DNA of 64,000 nt, from the NCBI RefSeq assembly GCF_013167455.1, contig NZ_CP038328.1, one strand, 5' to 3'. The position numbers were made by a program, and so were the translations under genes. The DNA comes from Escherichia coli O157:H7. GTDB lineage: Bacteria; Pseudomonadota; Gammaproteobacteria; Enterobacterales; Enterobacteriaceae. A model generated the notes under the pieces. It did no database searches, was not told the origin of the DNA, and saw only the letters and a program-made list of their open reading frames with translations. Positions 2,643 through 49,413 of this stretch are shown here, in pieces; position 1 is the first letter of the stretch; the number at the start of each line of letters is the position of its first letter.

Positions 2643-3692
2643 ATGGCAACAGGCACGCAGCCCGATGCTGGGCAGATCCTCAACTCGCTGATTAACAGTA
2701 TTTTGTTAATCGATGACAACCTGGCGATCCATTACGCCAACCCCGCCGCGCAACAACTGCTCGCCCAAAGCTCCCGCAAATTGTTTGGTACGCCGTTACC
2801 GGAACTGTTGAGCTACTTCTCATTAAATATTGAGCTGATGCAAGAAAGTCTGGAGGCGGGGCAAGGTTTTACCGATAACGAAGTGACGCTGGTCATCGAC
2901 GGTCGCTCGCATATCCTTTCTGTGACGGCCCAGCGTATGCCGGACGGCATGATCCTGCTGGAGATGGCGCCGATGGATAACCAGCGCCGCTTAAGCCAGG
3001 AACAGCTACAACATGCTCAACAAGTTGCTGCCCGTGATTTAGTGCGTGGCCTGGCACATGAGATTAAAAATCCGCTTGGCGGTTTACGTGGCGCGGCGCA
3101 GCTACTCAGCAAAGCATTACCTGACCCGTCACTGCTGGAATATACCAAAGTGATTATCGAACAGGCGGACCGGCTGCGAAATCTGGTCGACCGTCTGTTG
3201 GGGCCGCAGCTGCCCGGTACGCGCGTTACCGAAAGTATTCACAAAGTAGCTGAACGCGTGGTAACGCTGGTGTCGATGGAACTGCCGGACAACGTGCGGT
3301 TGATTCGTGATTACGATCCCAGCCTGCCGGAACTGGCGCACGACCCGGATCAAATTGAACAGGTCTTGCTGAATATTGTGCGCAATGCGCTACAGGCGCT
3401 GGGGCCGGAAGGCGGTGAAATCATTCTGCGTACCCGCACCGCGTTTCAACTGACCTTACACGGCGAACGCTATCGGCTGGCGGCGCGGATTGATGTGGAA
3501 GATAACGGGCCAGGCATTCCGCCTCATTTGCAGGATACGCTGTTTTACCCGATGGTCAGCGGCCGCGAAGGTGGCACCGGGCTTGGCTTATCCATCGCTC
3601 GTAATTTGATTGATCAGCATTCAGGCAAAATTGAATTTACCAGTTGGCCAGGGCATACCGAGTTCTCGGTTTACCTGCCTATCAGGAAATAA
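2643..3692 (+). CDS. glnL: Nitrogen regulation sensor histidine kinase NtrB (NRII)
   Basis: 349-aa ORF with H-box ([11 protein letters not shown]) and ATP-binding G-box motifs. Confidence 0.96.
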
Positions 3693-3703
3693 AGGTGACG
3701 TTT

Positions 3704-5113
3704 ATGCAACGAGGGATAGTCTGGGTAGTCGATGACGATAGTTCCATCCGTTGGGTGCTTGAACGTGCGCTCGCTGGAGCGGGTTTAACCTGTACAACAT
3801 TTGAGAACGGCGCGGAGGTACTGGAGGCGCTGGCGAGCAAAACGCCGGATGTGCTGCTTTCAGATATCCGTATGCCGGGAATGGACGGGCTGGCACTGCT
3901 CAAGCAGATTAAACAGCGCCATCCGATGCTTCCGGTCATCATTATGACCGCACATTCCGATCTGGATGCTGCCGTCAGCGCCTATCAACAAGGGGCGTTT
4001 GATTATCTGCCCAAACCGTTTGATATCGACGAAGCCGTGGCGCTGGTTGAGCGCGCCATCAGTCATTACCAGGAACAGCAGCAGCCGCGTAATGTTCAGC
4101 TTAACGGCCCAACGACCGATATCATCGGCGAAGCGCCAGCCATGCAGGACGTGTTCCGTATTATCGGTCGGCTTTCGCGTTCTTCTATTAGCGTGCTGAT
4201 TAACGGCGAATCCGGCACCGGTAAAGAACTGGTCGCTCATGCCCTGCATCGCCACAGTCCGCGAGCCAAAGCGCCATTTATCGCTCTGAATATGGCGGCT
4301 ATCCCGAAGGATTTGATCGAATCAGAACTGTTTGGTCACGAGAAAGGCGCGTTTACCGGCGCGAATACCATTCGTCAGGGGCGTTTTGAACAGGCTGATG
4401 GCGGTACATTATTTCTCGATGAAATTGGCGATATGCCGCTGGATGTGCAGACGCGTTTGCTGCGCGTGCTGGCAGACGGTCAGTTTTACCGCGTTGGCGG
4501 CTATGCGCCGGTGAAAGTGGATGTGCGGATTATCGCTGCCACTCACCAGAATCTCGAACAGCGGGTGCAGGAAGGTAAGTTCCGTGAGGATCTGTTCCAC
4601 CGCCTGAACGTTATCCGCGTTCATCTGCCGCCGCTGCGTGAGCGTCGGGAAGATATTCCCCGCCTGGCGCGCCATTTTTTACAGGTTGCCGCGCGAGAAC
4701 TGGGCGTAGAAGCGAAGTTGCTGCATCCGGAAACCGAAGCCGCGTTGACGCGTCTGGCGTGGCCAGGCAACGTGCGCCAGCTGGAAAACACCTGCCGCTG
4801 GCTAACGGTAATGGCTGCCGGACAGGAAGTGTTGATTCAGGATTTGCCTGGCGAACTGTTTGAATCAACGGTTGCGGAGAGTACTTCGCAAATGCAACCG
4901 GACAGTTGGGCGACGCTTCTTGCGCAGTGGGCAGACAGAGCGCTACGTTCCGGTCATCAAAATCTGCTTTCCGAAGCGCAGCCAGAGCTGGAGCGGACGT
5001 TACTGACGACCGCGTTGCGACATACGCAGGGGCATAAACAGGAGGCGGCGCGGCTACTCGGCTGGGGCCGCAACACCCTGACGCGTAAGTTAAAAGAGCT
5101 GGGGATGGAGTGA
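3704..5113 (+). CDS. glnG: Nitrogen regulation response regulator NtrC (NRI), sigma54 activator
   Basis: Start placed at internal ATG ([23 protein letters not shown]...) giving 469 aa; receiver domain, AAA+ GESGTGKE motif, C-terminal HTH. Confidence 0.95.
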
Positions 5114-33717: not shown

Positions 33718-35030
<1,313 letters not shown>

Positions 35031-43269: not shown

Positions 43270-45531
43270 TTACCCCCGACGCAAGTTCTGCGCCGCCTGC
43301 ACCATGTTCGCCAGTGCCGCGCGGGTTTCTGGCCAGCCGCGCGTTTTCAGGCCACAGTCCGGGTTGACCCACAGGCGCTCTGCCGGAATGCGTTTTGCCG
43401 CTTTCTTCAGCAAGGCTTCAATCCATTCCACGCTCGGTACGTTTGGCGAGTGAATGTCATAGACGCCTGGACCGATTTCATTCGGATAATCAAACTCTTC
43501 GAACGACTCCAGCAACTCCATGTCAGAACGCGAGGTTTCGATGGTGATGACGTCTGCGTCCAGTGCCGCAATCGAATCCATGATGTCGTTGAACTCGCAA
43601 TAACACATGTGAGTGTGGATTTGTGTGTCATCTTTCGCCACGGCGGCGTTGATACGGAAGGCCTCCACGCCCCACTGGAGATATGCATCCCAGTCGCTAC
43701 GACGCAGCGGTAAACCTTCGCGCAGCGCCGGTTCATCAATCTGGATGATGCCAATTCCTGCGGCTTCCAGGTCCGCCACTTCATCACGCAGCGCCAGCGC
43801 AATTTGTTTGGCGATGGTTTCACGGCTGACATCTTCACGCGGGAACGACCAGCAGAGAATGGTCACCGGGCCAGTCAGCATCCCTTTCACCGGTTTATCA
43901 GTCATAGATTGCGCATACTTCGCCCACTCCACGGTAATCGGTGCCGGGCGACTAACGTCACCAATAACAATCGGTGGCTTCACGCAGCGGGAACCGTAGC
44001 TCTGTACCCAACCGTTTTGCGTAAAGACAAACCCGTCGAGGTGCTCGCCAAAGTATTCCACCATGTCATTACGCTCGGCCTCGCCATGTACCAGCACATC
44101 CAGTCCCAAACGTTCCTGTTCAACAATGGCCTGCCTGATATGTTCCGCAATGCCCGTGCGGTAGTTATTGGCGTCGAGATTGCCCTTTTTGAAATCCAGA
44201 CGCAGGGTACGAATTTCCGTGGTTTGCGGGAAGGAACCAATCGTGGTGGTCGGCCACGCTGGCAGTTTAAAACGCGCACGCTGGGCTTCAGCACGCACTT
44301 CATAGACATTCGCACGCTGGCTGTCCTGGGCGGTGATCGCCGCCAGACGCTTTTCTACCGCCGGATTATGTACACGAGTAGAGTGACGACGCGCCTGAAT
44401 TGGGGCGCTCCACTCTGCCAGAGCTGCCGTGTCACCACTGTTCAGCGCATCGCGCAGCAGTGCCAGTTCATGGCATTTTTGTAGGGCGAAGGCAAACCAG
44501 CTTTTCACTTCTGCATCAAGACGCGTTTCCACGCTCAGGTCGATGGGGCTGTGCAGCAACGAGCAGGAAGATGCCACCCACAAATCACGTTTGCCGACAA
44601 TGTCCTTAATTTGCACATATTTCTCAGTAAGATCGGCGCGCCAGACGTTACGACCATTGATCAGACCCGCAGACAGCAGCCAGTCAGAAGGCAGGCGCTT
44701 GTGCAGTTCAACAACGTCATCTTTACCATGTACAAGGTCCACATGCAGCCCCTGAACAGGCAGCGCAGTAATCGTGTCGAGATTTGGCGTTACGCCTTCA
44801 AAATAGGTGGTCAGCAGCAGTTTCACCTGTCCCTGGAGCGCGTCGTAAGCGGGTTTGTATGCGTCCAGCCACGCCTGTGGTAGTTCCAGTACCAGCGCGG
44901 GTTCATCAATCTGTACCCACTCGATGCCACGTTTCGCCAGTTCTGCCAGCACTTGCTGATAAACCGGCAGAATGTCGTTCAGCAGGCTCAGGCGGTCAAA
45001 CTGTTCACCTTTCACTTTCCCCAGCCACAGCCAGGTAATCGGCCCCAGCAGCACAGGTTTCACCTTGTGGCCCAGCGCCAGCGCCTCGTCCACTTCGTCC
45101 AGCAGCTGCGTCCAGGTCAGTTTGAACTGTTGGCCTTTAACGAACTCCGGCACCATGTAGTGATAGTTGGTGTTAAACCATTTGGTCATTTCCGCTGCCG
45201 CCGCAGGTTCGCCAGTCGGCGCACGTCCACGACCAATACGGAACAGGGTGTCGATATCTACCGAACCATCTTTGTTCTGATGACGCGCCGGAACGTTACC
45301 CAGCAGCAGACTGGTGGTCAGTACATGATCGTACCAGGCAAAATCGCCCACCGGCAGCAGGTCGATACCCGCTTGCTTTTGTTGATCCCAGTGACGAGCA
45401 CGCAATTCACGCCCTACCGCCAGCAGTTCTTCACGCGTGGAGTTCCCCGCCCAATAACTCTCTTGCGCTTTTTTCAGCTCGCGACGCAGGCCAACGCGAG
45501 GGAAACCGAGGGTGTGATTCAATATTGTCAT
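43270..45531 (-). CDS. metE: Cobalamin-independent methionine synthase
   Basis: 753 aa [37 protein letters not shown]... Confidence 0.97.
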
Positions 45532-45665
45532 TTTTCTTCCTCTAATTATATGTAAATCCTATGGATTTTGAATTTAGGGAAGGCGGCAAGTTTATTCATC
45601 CCCGGGAGCTTACTGAAGTAAGTGACCGGGGTGGAGAAACGCAGCCAACGCACCATAAATTTAAA

Positions 45666-45705
45666 AGACGAAGGATTTTAGCCGTCCAGATGTTTACACA
45701 TCCAT
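45666..45705. promoter_or_regulatory. Putative tandem MetJ met-box array in metE-metR divergent control region
   Basis: agacgaag gattttag ccgtccag atgtttac acatccat: degenerate 8-bp repeats resembling AGACGTCT; weak match. Confidence 0.35.
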
Positions 45706-45766
45706 AATTGGCGGTTACTGTATATTCCTCAAGCGCAAATTATTCATGCCGAAGTGAAGGACTTTC

Positions 45767-46720
45767 ATGATCGAAGTAAAACACCTGAAAACGCTACAAG
45801 CGTTGCGGAACTGCGGCTCTCTCGCAGCCGCTGCGGCGACGTTGCATCAAACGCAATCCGCCCTGTCTCACCAGTTTAGCGATCTGGAACAACGCCTTGG
45901 CTTCCGGCTATTTGTGCGTAAGAGCCAGCCGCTACGCTTTACTCCACAGGGGGAAATCCTGTTGCAACTGGCAAACCAGGTGCTGCCGCAAATTAGCCAG
46001 GCGCTGCAAGCCTGCAATGAACCGCAACAGACGCGCCTGCGCATTGCCATTGAGTGCCATAGCTGTATTCAGTGGCTGACGCCCGCATTAGAAAATTTCC
46101 ATAAGAACTGGCCGCAGGTGGAGATGGATTTTAAATCGGGCGTAACGTTTGACCCGCAGCCTGCGTTGCAGCAGGGCGAGCTGGATCTGGTGATGACCTC
46201 CGATATTCTGCCGCGTAGTGGCCTGCATTATTCGCCGATGTTCGACTATGAAGTGCGTCTGGTGTTAGCACCTGACCATCCACTGGCGGCGAAAACGCGA
46301 ATCACGCCGGAAGATCTCGCCAGCGAAACGCTGTTGATTTATCCGGTGCAGCGTAGCCGACTGGATGTCTGGCGGCATTTTCTCCAGCCCGCAGGCGTTA
46401 GCCCGTCGCTGAAAAGCGTCGATAACACCTTATTGTTGATTCAGATGGTTGCCGCGCGGATGGGTATTGCCGCGCTACCACATTGGGTAGTAGAGAGTTT
46501 TGAGCGCCAGGGTCTGGTGGTGACCAAAACCCTGGGCGAAGGCTTGTGGAGCCGACTGTACGCCGCCGTGCGCGATGGCGAGCAGCGTCAGCCAGTTACG
46601 GAAGCGTTTATTCGCTCAGCGCGCAATCACGCCTGCGATCATCTGCCGTTTGTGAAGAGCGCGGAGCGACCCACTTACGATGCACCCACAGTGAGGCCAG
46701 GATCACCAGCGCGCCTGTAA
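45767..46720 (+). CDS. metR: LysR-family regulator MetR
   Basis: 317 aa [45 protein letters not shown]... Confidence 0.95.
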
Positions 46721-47507
46721 TAAACGTTGGCCAGTGCGGCTGTTGGTGCCAGATAGCCAGGTTAACCAGCAGCCCTGCCGGAACGTGCATATTATTCATA
46801 ATGCCCAGCGTTCCGGCGTCTACTTGGGTTGCGCCGTAGTTCCACATAAAGTAGCCAATCCCGGAAGCCACCACGCCAAGAAACACCAGAATGCCCCATT
46901 GCAACGTGGTTTGCGGCATTTTCTGCGCATTTCCCAGCAAGAACCATGCAATTACCGCCACCAGGAACGCGCCAAGATAGAACCACGCAAAGGCGTTATG
47001 CTGCGGCATCGGGCGAGTTTCCATCAGGCGTTTGTAACCCACCATGCCGATGGCAAAAGTGATATTGGAGAGTTGCACCAGCAACAAGCCAGTCCAGAAA
47101 TGGTCGGTGACCTGATCATAGCGAATAATCCCGGCACCAATCACCGCCAACAAGGCACTAAAAGCATATCCCCAGCGCAGACGGCGCTTACTCATGATGT
47201 CATAAATCAGCGTGATGTAGAGCGGCGTCAGTACGGTGAACAGCAGCAGTTCGGAAACCGTCAGGTAGAGATAAGCGCGGAAACTCAGCATATACATCAC
47301 GCCGAGCTGCATCGCGCCCACCAGCATATACAGGCCGACTGTTTTCAGGCTATTGCCACGGGTACGCAGAAACGGCAGAAAAACGAGTGCCGCCAGGCCA
47401 ACGCGCACCAGCACCGCAAAATAGCTATCGACGTGCCCCGCAAGGTACTCGCCATAAAAGCTAAAGGAGAAGGCCCACAGAATCGTGGTGATGATAAGTA
47501 GCGCCAC
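46608..47507 (-). CDS. yigM: EamA-family transporter YigM (biotin transporter BioP)
   Basis: 299 aa polytopic membrane protein [24 protein letters not shown]...; 3' end overlaps metR 3' end by 113 nt. Confidence 0.85.
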
Positions 47508-47582
47508 AATGGAAAACTCTTTGATTAACGAGTATCCATTGTAGCGAAGTATCAGGTTGACAACTGACCAAATAAAGAACGA

Positions 47583-48383
47583 TTACGATAAATAGAGTTT
47601 ACGCAGATAATGCGGCACCGCGTCGTCGGCATTAGTACCAATCACTTCCAGCTCGGGATGAAGGTCTTTCAGACGCTGGTGCGCACTGCCCATAATGCAG
47701 CCTTTCCCCGCCATCGACAGCATTTCGGCATCGTTCATCCCGTCACCAAACGCAATACAATCCTTCAGGCTGTAGCCCAGTTTCTTCGCCACCGCTTCCA
47801 GCGCATGGCCTTTTGAAACGCCGCCCGCCATCACTTCCAGACAGGTTAAGGTAGAGAAACTGACGTTGACGCGATCGCCCCAACGAGCGTTAATCGCCTG
47901 CTCCAGCGGCAGCAGTTGTTCATGGGAATCGCAGGTGAAGAACACTTTGCTGACGCCTTCCGGCTCCAGTAATCCAGGCTCATACAGCGCATATTTGAAC
48001 ACCGCTTCTTTAAAAAAGCGCATCTCTTCCGGGCGATGGCGATTCATAAACCATTCGTCGTCGCGATAAACGTTAGTAATGATGTCCGGATTGTCGTTGA
48101 CTACGCCAAACAGATCGCTGGCAATGTCGCGATCCAGGTTATGAGCAAAAATCAGATTACCATCCAGATCGTGAACGCGCGCACCATTGGAGGTAATCAT
48201 GTAAGACTTAATCTCCAGATTATCGCGAATTTGCCCCACATCAACGTGGTGACGACCGGTCGCAAACACAAAGTTGATGCCGCGCGCGGTGAGCAGCTTC
48301 AGGGGTTCTTTGGCGTAAGGGGATAATGTATGGTCGGGAGAAAGTAACGTGCCATCTAAATCAGACGCAACAACCTGGTACAT
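47583..48383 (-). CDS. yigL: HAD-family sugar phosphatase YigL (Cof-like)
   Basis: MYQVVASDLDGTLLSPDHTLSPYAKEPL..., 266 aa from internal ATG. Confidence 0.9.
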   Translation of the reverse strand: MYQVVASDLDGTLLSPDHTLSPYAKEPLKLLTARGINFVFATGRHHVDVGQIRDNLEIKSYMITSNGARVHDLDGNLIFAHNLDRDIASDLFGVVNDNPDIITNVYRDDEWFMNRHRPEEMRFFKEAVFKYALYEPGLLEPEGVSKVFFTCDSHEQLLPLEQAINARWGDRVNVSFSTLTCLEVMAGGVSKGHALEAVAKKLGYSLKDCIAFGDGMNDAEMLSMAGKGCIMGSAHQRLKDLHPELEVIGTNADDAVPHYLRKLYLS

Positions 48384-48390
48384 AAGAAAT

Positions 48391-49413
48391 TTAAACCTCT
48401 GTAGAGCGGTTTCCGCTGGGTGAGTTATGCCTGTTGAAAAAATCAACGATGGCGTGGAGCGCAACTGAGCGCATTGCGTCCTTTTCAAAAAGGATCTCAT
48501 GGTACGCACCTTTAATTACCAGCGGTCGTCCCCCTTCGACAGGATGGCCCGCGGCGGTGCGGAGTTCACAAAAACGGTCATGAATGCGGTTATCCACCAC
48601 GCGTTCCTCTTCAGCCTGCAAGAGAAGCGTTGGCGTGGCGTCATCACCCGCACCGGCTAACACCTGTTCGCCAGCCAGAATACTTTCGCGTACCCAATGG
48701 TAGGTCGGCCCACCGACGCGAATCGTTGGGTCATCAGCATAGAAGCGTAAGTTACGTCGATATCGCTGTCTGCTGTGGGTCAGTACGTTGATAGCAAACG
48801 GCAACGCGCGCCAGCGCCCGGTGCCTATTGCATAGCCATCACGGAAACGTGGATGCGCTTCGGCCCAGTTGAGGATCTGCCGTGCCATAAATGACGGCAT
48901 ACGAATCACGATCCCAAACATTGGCGCAGTTAGCGCAATGGCGTCACATACACCTGGATGGCGTTGCAGAAATAATGTGGAGATCGCACCGCCCATCGAA
49001 TGTGCCAGTATATAGCGTTTACGCCACGGACCGGGCTGGACCTCCTGTTGCCAGAATGCCGCCAGATCATCAACATAATCATTAAAGCGATTAACATGCC
49101 CGAGATGCGGATCGGCTAACAGGCGACCGGAACGTCCCTGCCCGCGATGGTCGATGATTAAGACATCAAACCCCAAATGGAACAAATCGTAGGCCAGTTC
49201 CGCATATTTTACGTAACTCTCAATACGCCCCGGGCAGATGACTACCACCCGGTCATGGTGCTGTGCGCGAAAACGGACAAAGCGCACCGGAATGTCATCC
49301 ACACCAGTAAACTCTGCTTCATCACGCTGACGCCAGAAATCAGTCAGCGGTCCCATGGTAAAAGCAGCAAACGCGTTTTCTCTTGTTTCCCAGTCTTTTT
49401 GCTGCTGAAACAT
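48391..49413 (-). CDS. pldB: Lysophospholipase L2
   Basis: 340 aa MFQQQKDWETRENAFAAFTMGPLTDFWRQRDEAEF...; GHSMGG lipase motif. Confidence 0.94.
   Translation of the reverse strand: MFQQQKDWETRENAFAAFTMGPLTDFWRQRDEAEFTGVDDIPVRFVRFRAQHHDRVVVICPGRIESYVKYAELAYDLFHLGFDVLIIDHRGQGRSGRLLADPHLGHVNRFNDYVDDLAAFWQQEVQPGPWRKRYILAHSMGGAISTLFLQRHPGVCDAIALTAPMFGIVIRMPSFMARQILNWAEAHPRFRDGYAIGTGRWRALPFAINVLTHSRQRYRRNLRFYADDPTIRVGGPTYHWVRESILAGEQVLAGAGDDATPTLLLQAEEERVVDNRIHDRFCELRTAAGHPVEGGRPLVIKGAYHEILFEKDAMRSVALHAIVDFFNRHNSPSGNRSTEV

Follow-up and report, generated by a model that had tools for sequence, protein, structure and literature searches.

In the survey of overlapping prokaryotic genes by Pallejà et al. 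2008 (PMC2478687), the convergent, tail-to-tail orientation accounted for 7% of 42,055 overlaps among well-characterised genes and was the only one to yield putatively true long overlaps: of its 178 convergent cases exceeding 60 bp in length, 124 were classed as 3'-extension misannotations and 54 as putatively true. Both genes of a pair needed a KEGG pathway to enter that data set (PMC2478687). At the level of transcription, termination by polymerase collision has been documented for convergent Escherichia coli gene pairs in general, not for metR/bioP (doi 10.1101/2022.10.23.513370).

The closest described case is the locus studied here. Côté et al. 2016, mBio (PMC5120140) reported that yigM "overlaps substantially" with metR (b3827/b3828 in the K-12 RefSeq record) and that the Keio metR deletion, because it also disrupts yigM, behaves as a yigM deletion: combined with loss of bioA it is synthetic-lethal, and an inhibitor of BioA finds it sensitive; their own yigM deletion ends just outside the metR stop codon. 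The function of the yigM product, BioP, in biotin uptake is known from the same study and from another (PMC5120140, PMC4049904). Here we compare the metR-bioP overlap of E. coli O157:H7 with these systems and find it confirmed as real, conserved and previously described.

Layout and identity of the metR and bioP genes

The window, i.e. the whole stretch of DNA analysed, comprises 64,000 nucleotides of E. coli O157:H7 and carries metR and bioP (yigM) as a convergent pair (Table 1). Both gene names proposed by a previous sequence-only reading were borne out by the RefSeq annotation and by Pfam and NCBIfam matches. MetR contains the Pfam domains HTH_1 (PF00126, residues 5-63) and LysR_substrate (PF03466, residues 86-288) and matches the NCBIfam equivalog NF011950 with 741 bits over residues 1-317 (cutoff 382), thus combining the DNA-binding and substrate-binding domains with a full-length, above-cutoff family match; it is, moreover, identical to PDB entry 5FO5 over residues 1-92. 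Upstream of metR, metE occupies positions 43270-45531 on the minus strand and is divergently transcribed, a layout present in all related loci that were inspected gene by gene. In BioP, Pfam EamA is matched twice, in line with two repeats, and TIGR00950 covers residues 11-273 with 309.9 bits (cutoff 230.2), which places the protein among the DMT transporters.

Table 1. Features of the metR/bioP locus, in window coordinates
Feature	Position	Strand	Description
metR CDS	45767..46720	+	317 aa, ATG start; LysR-type activator of metE/metH; ORF list and RefSeq
bioP (yigM) CDS	46608..47507	-	299 aa, GTG start; ten-helix DMT/EamA biotin transporter; ORF list and RefSeq ("bioP: biotin transporter")
Tail-to-tail overlap of the metR and bioP ORFs	46608..46720	both	113 nt; ORF list, RefSeq, K-12 coordinates
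TTTATT	46607..46612	+	MetR F281-I282; on the minus strand, 46610-46608 is the bioP stop TAA
metR stop TAA and second in-frame TAA	46718..46723	+	opposite YigM F262, I263 and T264
MetR-constrained part	46608..46655		MetR 281-297 (end of the effector domain's last helix and strand); opposite, YigM tail 285-299 and stop
Doubly constrained junction	46656..46673	both	MetR 298-302 (S/N-A-E-R-P) and YigM 279-284 (W-V-A-P-R-S), on opposite strands of the same bases
YigM-constrained part	46674..46720		YigM 263-278 (second half of TM helix 10); opposite, MetR tail 303-317 and stop
Rho-dependent region, peak	~46879	-	K-12 position 4011704 converted to window coordinate

The 113-nt tail-to-tail overlap, the central claim of the sequence-only reading, is likewise found in the ORF list, in the RefSeq/PGAP annotation of E. 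coli O157:H7 PV15-279, where the same two coding sequences have identical ends, and in the same layout in K-12 MG1655 (bioP 4011076-4011975, metR 4011863-4012816). The segment 45700-47600 is 100% identical to the PV15-279 and other E. coli O157:H7 genomes, and 5,423 of 5,426 complete E. coli genomes carry this stretch. On the metR side the overlap takes in two nucleotides of codon 281, codons 282-317 and the stop, and on the bioP side two nucleotides of codon 263, codons 264-299 and the stop. In the resulting phase, the first codon positions of metR and bioP face each other and the second positions of either gene face the third positions of the other, which leaves hardly any site synonymous in both frames.

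Antisense runs that stay open for 37 codons or more in the phase of the overlap are not in themselves rare, as 15-22% of the runs in the window reach that length. The other convergent CDS pairs in the window (about 11-12 in total) are separated by gaps of 39-381 nt or share a 4-nt overlap (tatD/rfaH); the rarity lies in two genuine genes being positioned to exploit an open antisense run. The metR/bioP pair itself presumably lies outside the KEGG-restricted data set cited in the opening paragraph. That long convergent overlaps are uncommon, as the sequence-only reading had stated, agrees with both the window's other pairs and the counts of Pallejà et al. 2008.

Distribution of the overlap across Enterobacterales

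Conservation was assessed in 81 Enterobacteriaceae species, which are mutually related, so that the counts below are not independent. Further Enterobacterales families were reached indirectly, via metR neighbourhoods; the matches listed by the BioP homologue search were taken up by Enterobacteriaceae at 82% identity or more, and every BioP in the comparison comes from within Enterobacterales. The overlap measures 113 nt in 78 of the 81 loci, 116 nt in two and 98 nt in one, and MetR has 317 aa in 78 loci, with two exceptions of 318 aa and a single one of 312 aa. Translation of bioP stops at the same place in all loci but one, in which an earlier stop at codon 285 yields a protein of 284 aa; GTC instead of GTG at MetR V296, ahead of an A-starting codon 297, produces this stop. 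In all overlapping lineages that were examined, the bioP stop falls on one and the same metR nucleotide. Beyond Enterobacteriaceae, an identical 113-nt overlap is present in Yersinia kristensenii, while Rahnella and Pectobacterium have overlaps of 95 nt and Dickeya one of 98 nt, in each case with a shorter MetR and a BioP that is still 299 aa long. The 3' ends of both ORFs are thus kept among orthologues of several species, and a convergent overlap as such extends to Enterobacteriaceae, Pectobacteriaceae and, within Yersiniaceae, two genera.

Other lineages lack it. In Serratia ficaria, MetR (316 aa) and YigM (286 aa, ending in WVAPKQVG) are encoded on either side of a 36-nt spacer that holds a GC-rich hairpin; in an Erwinia sp. 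a 5-nt gap separates the genes for a 313-aa MetR and a 287-aa YigM; in Pantoea (MetR 310 aa, YigM 289 aa) the two genes are not adjacent, another gene lying between them. YigM thus has 286-289 aa in the non-overlapping lineages. Two more distant metE-metR loci, with MetR of 308-311 aa, have no bioP downstream. With the general background on the family tree as its basis, the simplest reading is an ancestral overlap that has disappeared at least twice, in Serratia and in Erwiniaceae. Resolution of the Serratia overlap by duplication of the shared segment is not supported, as the DNA of the Serratia metR tail resembles neither the 3' end of bioP nor the overlap segment of Yersinia to a significant degree (score 17, shuffle mean 16.4).

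These data bear on the proposal of the sequence-only reading that one annotated end is too long, in which case orthologues of one protein might consistently end before the overlap. Taken as an artefact the proposal is not supported: the stops occupy the same positions, and both protein ends are kept, in 78 of the 81 Enterobacteriaceae species and in Yersinia, the shorter YigM of 286-289 aa occurring in lineages without the overlap. Because the 3' ends are set by stop codons, an annotation artefact is not supported as the origin of the overlap; lengths common to more than 80 species, and to 5,423 of 5,426 E. coli genomes, also differ from what defines the 3'-extension misannotations (group iii) of Pallejà et al. 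In an evolutionary sense the proposal is half right, and for both genes, as each frame continues past its core into a fast-evolving tail of 15-18 residues that is predicted to be disordered.

Division of constraint between the two frames

Per-column and per-codon entropies across 78 species show that the two halves of the overlap vary in different registers. In 46608-46655 variation falls on metR codon position 3, and in 46674-46720 (seen likewise in 46680-46720) on bioP codon position 3, with entropies at metR positions 1/2/3 of 0.14/0.00/0.85 in 46632-46655 and of 0.20/0.75/0.00 in 46680-46703. The switch in codon periodicity is clean and lies at about 46656-46673, a stretch of ~18 nt in which synonymous entropy drops to about 0 for either frame and the codons are fixed or nearly so (metR GCG, CGA and CCC; bioP TGG, GTC, GCT and CCG).

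The amino acid entropies follow the same partition. For MetR they are 0.18 in residues 1-280, 0.09 in 281-297, 0.13 in 298-302 and 1.16 in 303-317; for YigM they are 0.34 in residues 1-262, 0.49 in 263-278, 0.20 in 279-284, 0.93 in 285-294 and 0.50 in 295-299. In MetR codons 289-297 and in YigM codons 263-278, synonymous sites vary about as much as they do outside the overlap; this near-normal level opposite the tails indicates that the tail of the partner imposes little constraint there. Purifying selection in both frames is therefore confined to the junction at 46656-46673 and does not extend across the whole shared segment. The conserved cores of the two proteins abut, the 113 nt are essentially two tails, and the overlap, while no annotation error, does not amount to true dual coding either.

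Stop codons and residual conservation

The position of each stop codon can be read from the partner protein. MetR F281-I282, written as TTY ATH, always reads T(A/G)A, i.e. TAA or TGA, on the opposite strand, and positions 46611-46612 provide the last two bases of the final bioP codon, GAA for Glu (46613-46611). At the other end, YigM codon 263 together with the first base (A) of codon 264 faces the stop of metR: ATT or CTT at codon 263 gives TAA in the metR frame and ATC or CTC gives TGA, and 77 of 78 loci have one of these four codons. Where Leu occupies this codon, it is always encoded by the rare codons CTT or CTC, and the metR stop is kept. The conserved hydrophobic residues of each protein thereby fix the stop of the partner gene.

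Beyond what the amino acids demand, all 78 Enterobacteriaceae loci analysed encode MetR F281 as TTT and I282 as ATT; for comparison, the baseline is 5 invariant codons out of 249 that are degenerate. The same TTT ATT is found in Yersinia, Rahnella, Pectobacterium and Dickeya, all of them overlapping, whereas the non-overlapping lineages have TTT ATC (Serratia, Erwinia) or TTT GTG (Pantoea). A change of I282 from ATT to ATC would replace the terminal Glu of BioP by Gly, and the restriction of ATT to overlapping lineages suggests that the final codon of YigM, or the context of its stop, is under selection. As the reason for the invariant TTTATT, a hairpin of 5 bp at the bioP stop was considered and rejected, as its stem positions vary without compensation.

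Furthermore, YigM V268 is GTG in 76 of 78 loci and H276 is CAT in all 78; GTT or GTC at V268 would place a stop at MetR codon 313, and the single GTT is the Citrobacter gillenii allele that cuts MetR to 312 aa. In a simulation with synonymous codons, the frame of the BioP tail was expected to be open in about 91% of cases and is open in 77 of 78 species; for the MetR tail, the expectation of ~0.59 compares with 77 of 78 species observed, a contrast that is inflated by species relatedness and by the fixation of Ser272 as TCN and amounts to weak evidence only. Some synonymous sites opposite the tails are thus conserved beyond what the partner alone would need, so that the tails are not entirely free.

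Structure and length of the protein tails

An alignment-based AlphaFold2 model of MetR has a mean pLDDT of 90 and falls below 50 only at residues 303-317. The BioP model (mean pLDDT 82) consists of ten long helices, the last of them TM helix 10 at residues 259-279, followed by a low-confidence C-terminal helix at 281-292, and the pLDDT is below 50 at residues 282-299. The Pfam and NCBIfam domain models stop at MetR residue 288 and at YigM residues 273-275, and the effector-domain structure of Neisseria MetR (4AB5) aligns up to E. coli MetR residue 296 and no further. In line with these boundaries, more distant MetR cluster representatives of 296-312 aa end 3-12 residues past the LPGI/LPFV motif, and in the three non-overlapping lineages BioP ends 4-9 residues past the R-W-V motif. 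Naturally shortened proteins also occur, namely YigM of 284 aa (cluster P0075, 42 members) and of 285 aa (Salmonella Gaminara, 66 members) and MetR of 312 aa in C. gillenii. The two tails evolve rapidly, with disorder predicted for each, and they are probably floppy.

Transcription and RNA structure

A scan for terminator-like and promoter-like sites found neither an intrinsic terminator nor a promoter within the overlap; the sole terminator-like site of the scan, at 46321-46333 inside metR, is at chance level. RNA folding of 46600-46725 was no better than that of shuffled sequences on either strand (z = 0.25-0.28), and the shared 3' regions hold no hairpin element of the kind that characterises overlapping bidirectional terminators. 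The minus strand of 46500-46625 does fold better than shuffles (z = -3.2), with a hairpin at 46494-46533 inside metR, which we rejected as a structured RNA: there is no covariation in 35 species (term -0.14), and coding conservation explains the fold. Rfam gave no match in the metR or bioP genes. Separately, sub-threshold Rfam matches (Ysr49, V_AS5) were seen in the metE-metR intergenic region.

Since each mRNA has to run to its own stop, a minimum of 113 nt of the metR and bioP transcripts is complementary. For the bioP sense strand, supplementary file 2 of Adams et al. 2021 contains a region of Rho-dependent termination that peaks at K-12 position 4011704, inside yigM (Rho score 5.07, p = 1.3e-12, 800-nt windows). 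Among the searchable Term-seq supplements we found no transcript 3' ends of metR or yigM and no metR entry, the Rho region in yigM being the sole published signal that we found. Because no terminator fits between the two genes, transcriptional interference, the other implication drawn by the sequence-only reading, is possible at metR/bioP; it is not required to explain the persistence of the overlap.

Discussion

We favour, with a probability of roughly 80%, a genuine and ancient tail-to-tail overlap in which each frame runs past its own functional core into the antisense 3' end of its partner. The cores, MetR 1-302 and YigM 1 to about 284, meet in the 18-nt stretch 46656-46673. To the left of this junction the DNA evolves as metR, with the YigM tail 285-299 taking the resulting amino acids, and to the right it evolves as TM helix 10 of bioP, with the MetR tail 303-317 taking those that result there. 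The stops are locked, that of bioP by MetR F281-I282 and that of metR by YigM I/L263 together with the A-starting codon that follows, and termination on the bioP strand would be Rho-dependent, without a terminator between the genes. Such an overlap may be nearly cost-free, because only about 5-6 codons appear to be truly dual-coded; with its stops held by conserved residues of the partner it would hardly drift, would persist by structural inertia and would need no function.

The design of the Keio deletions keeps the last six codons of a gene. The Keio metR deletion, we assume, removes BioP from about residue 270 on, i.e. half of TM helix 10, and a loss of this extent fits the constraint map. 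Conversely, the Keio yigM::kan allele presumably cuts MetR at about residue 287. A bioH yigM::kan strain grew in mineral-salts medium with biotin (PMC4049904), and this growth hints, as weak evidence given that the exact composition of the medium is uncertain, that MetR tolerates a cut near residue 287.

A first alternative holds that the overlap was selected as a regulatory device, in which polymerase collision or antisense pairing reciprocally couples the level of MetR, and with it methionine and SAM, to biotin uptake. Biotin synthesis uses SAM at several steps. The arrangement is old, at exactly 113 nt from Escherichia to Yersinia; there is neither terminator nor spacer between genes whose mRNAs overlap by at least 113 nt, transcription of the bioP strand is Rho-limited without an intrinsic terminator, and collision-driven termination is on record for convergent E. 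coli pairs in general. However, the overlap was lost at least twice, in Serratia and Erwiniaceae, with a GC-rich hairpin spacer in its stead in Serratia, its length varies (95, 98, 113 and 116 nt), its RNA folds no better than shuffles (z = 0.25-0.28), the conserved residues of the partner fully explain the stop positions, and no expression data with reciprocity were found; we consider such a device unlikely. Its more specific form, a selected terminator-free convergent module in which head-on polymerases or a sense-antisense RNA duplex of 113 nt or more would place MetR and the biotin transporter in mutual antagonism, strikes us as distinctly unlikely; if true, it would tie biotin uptake to methionine/SAM status and make the conservation of TTTATT and of E299 part of the device.

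A second alternative ascribes a function to one or both tails, such as a cytoplasmic C-terminal signal in BioP or a modulator of oligomerisation in MetR, with dual coding selected in both frames. It could draw on the residual conservation, namely MetR I282 ATT, which yields YigM E299 (GAA) and the TAA stop and is over-conserved in overlapping lineages only, the lower variability of YigM 295-299 (S-A-L-S/N-E) relative to 285-294 (entropy 0.50 vs 0.93), the conserved V268 GTG and H276 CAT, and frames that are open more often than simulated; in addition, the Serratia MetR tail is of similar length (316 aa) despite the lack of overlap. That same tail is, however, without DNA similarity to the overlap segment, the tails of the non-overlapping lineages are unrelated in sequence, tail residues are 3-6 times more variable than the protein bodies and have a pLDDT below 50, and many isolates carry natural truncated alleles, all of which make functional tails highly unlikely. 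Last, an annotation or frame-extension artefact, in which one protein would end earlier and the excess would stem from a sequencing error, a strain-specific stop loss or a wrong frame, is extremely improbable: although 124 of 178 long convergent overlaps were so classed (PMC2478687), although the domain models end well short of both annotated ends and although YigM is shorter (286-289 aa) in lineages without overlap, the same sequence recurs in 5,423 of 5,426 complete E. coli genomes, Yersinia and 78 of the 81 Enterobacteriaceae species share both ORF lengths, a stop codon leaves the annotator no choice of 3' end, and BioP function is abolished when a metR deletion takes out the shared segment (PMC5120140).

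For practical purposes, the ancient overlap of two tails favoured here means that the final ~110 nt of either gene cannot be altered, whether by deletion, by CRISPR editing or by a transposon, without also hitting the partner, and the locus may serve as a teaching example of how a long convergent overlap can last very long while costing next to nothing. As the overlap was already known, it is an ordinary curiosity that opens no new question.

Among known systems, overlapping bidirectional terminators (Ju et al. 2019; doi 10.1101/2022.10.23.513370) resemble the locus in their convergent genes and in transcripts that overlap at their 3' ends, for which polymerase collision is a plausible means of termination, but they are intergenic, with a hairpin in the overlapping 3' UTRs, whereas the metR/bioP overlap is coding on both strands and gives no hairpin signal. 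The locus shares more with the conserved long convergent overlaps of Rogozin et al. 2002, as these are described in PMC2478687: it is tail-to-tail, longer than 60 bp, found across species and free of start-codon misannotation. Whereas most of the putatively true cases of Pallejà et al. are kept only among very close species, metR/bioP spans several families of Enterobacterales. Finally, the metR/yigM overlap of K-12 described by Côté et al. 2016 (PMC5120140) is the same locus with the same 113 nt and does not differ as an observation; to that description the present analysis adds the frame-wise split of constraint, the fixing of each stop by the partner gene, the disorder predictions for both tails and the distribution of the overlap across Enterobacterales.

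Sequence variation and codon choice at the metR-bioP locus

By nucleotide identity, the locus is fairly polymorphic within E. coli: the O157-type segment spanning positions 45700-47600 is matched at 99% identity or above in 308 of 5,425 E. coli genomes, and at 95-99% in the other 5,117. At the level of codons, MetR Arg297 (46655-46657) and Arg286 (46622-46624) are specified by CGG, a rare codon, in some 61-66 of the 78 Enterobacteriaceae species analysed, whereas E. coli carries AAG and CGC, respectively, at these positions. Read on the opposite strand, CGG at MetR 297 and 286 yields serine at YigM 284 and 295, so that its use may stem from a slight preference within the BioP tail, the fast-evolving YigM C-terminus read off the antisense of the conserved metR end. 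We also observed a metagenomic MetR fragment, P0155, which past the residues LPFVK continues in the +1 frame of the overlap, which corresponds to a 97-aa ORF of the window; the sequence stems either from faulty assembly or from an allele carrying a frameshift.

Features within and around the overlapping genes

The minus-strand RNA 3' of the bioP stop codon folds better than its shuffled counterparts (z = -3.2), a signal due to an imperfect inverted repeat inside metR. Because this repeat displays no covariation across 35 species, its folding signal is probably explained by coding constraint. In the divergent metE-metR promoter region, Rfam searches returned sub-threshold matches only, at E ~0.01, namely to Ysr49 (27.7 bits vs a gathering score of 95) and V_AS5 (26.7 bits vs 96). 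As to yigL, the RefSeq gene is shorter than the mechanically called ORF (801 nt and 266 aa vs 308 aa), so that the longest-ORF start probably sits upstream of the real one. Among the annotated gene pairs in the window, the sole convergent overlap besides metR/bioP is that of tatD and rfaH.

Coordinates of features in and around the metR-bioP locus
Feature	Position	Strand	Description
tatD/rfaH annotated overlap	34248-34251		4 nt, convergent; converted from NZ_AP018488.1 4918234-4918237
Sub-threshold Rfam matches (Ysr49, V_AS5)	45552-45726		within the divergent metE-metR promoter region
Imperfect inverted repeat	46494-46533		16-nt arms; within metR, residues ~243-256
+1-frame ORF	46546-46839		97 aa; entered by P0155
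'Shadow' ORF	46734-47501	+	255 aa; antisense to nearly all of bioP; absent from RefSeq annotation
yigL mechanical ORF	47583-48509	-	308 aa; GTG start

Related loci lacking the overlap

In the metE-metR locus L082 of an AT-rich organism (3001-4776), which encodes a 311-aa MetR of 61% identity, a convergent yigL-like hydrolase gene directly follows metR after a 30-nt gap, and bioP is absent between the two. In Serratia ficaria (L087, 3452-3487), a 36-nt spacer takes the place of the overlap; it contains an inverted repeat rich in GC, GGGCCGCC...GGCGGCCC, that resembles a bidirectional terminator.
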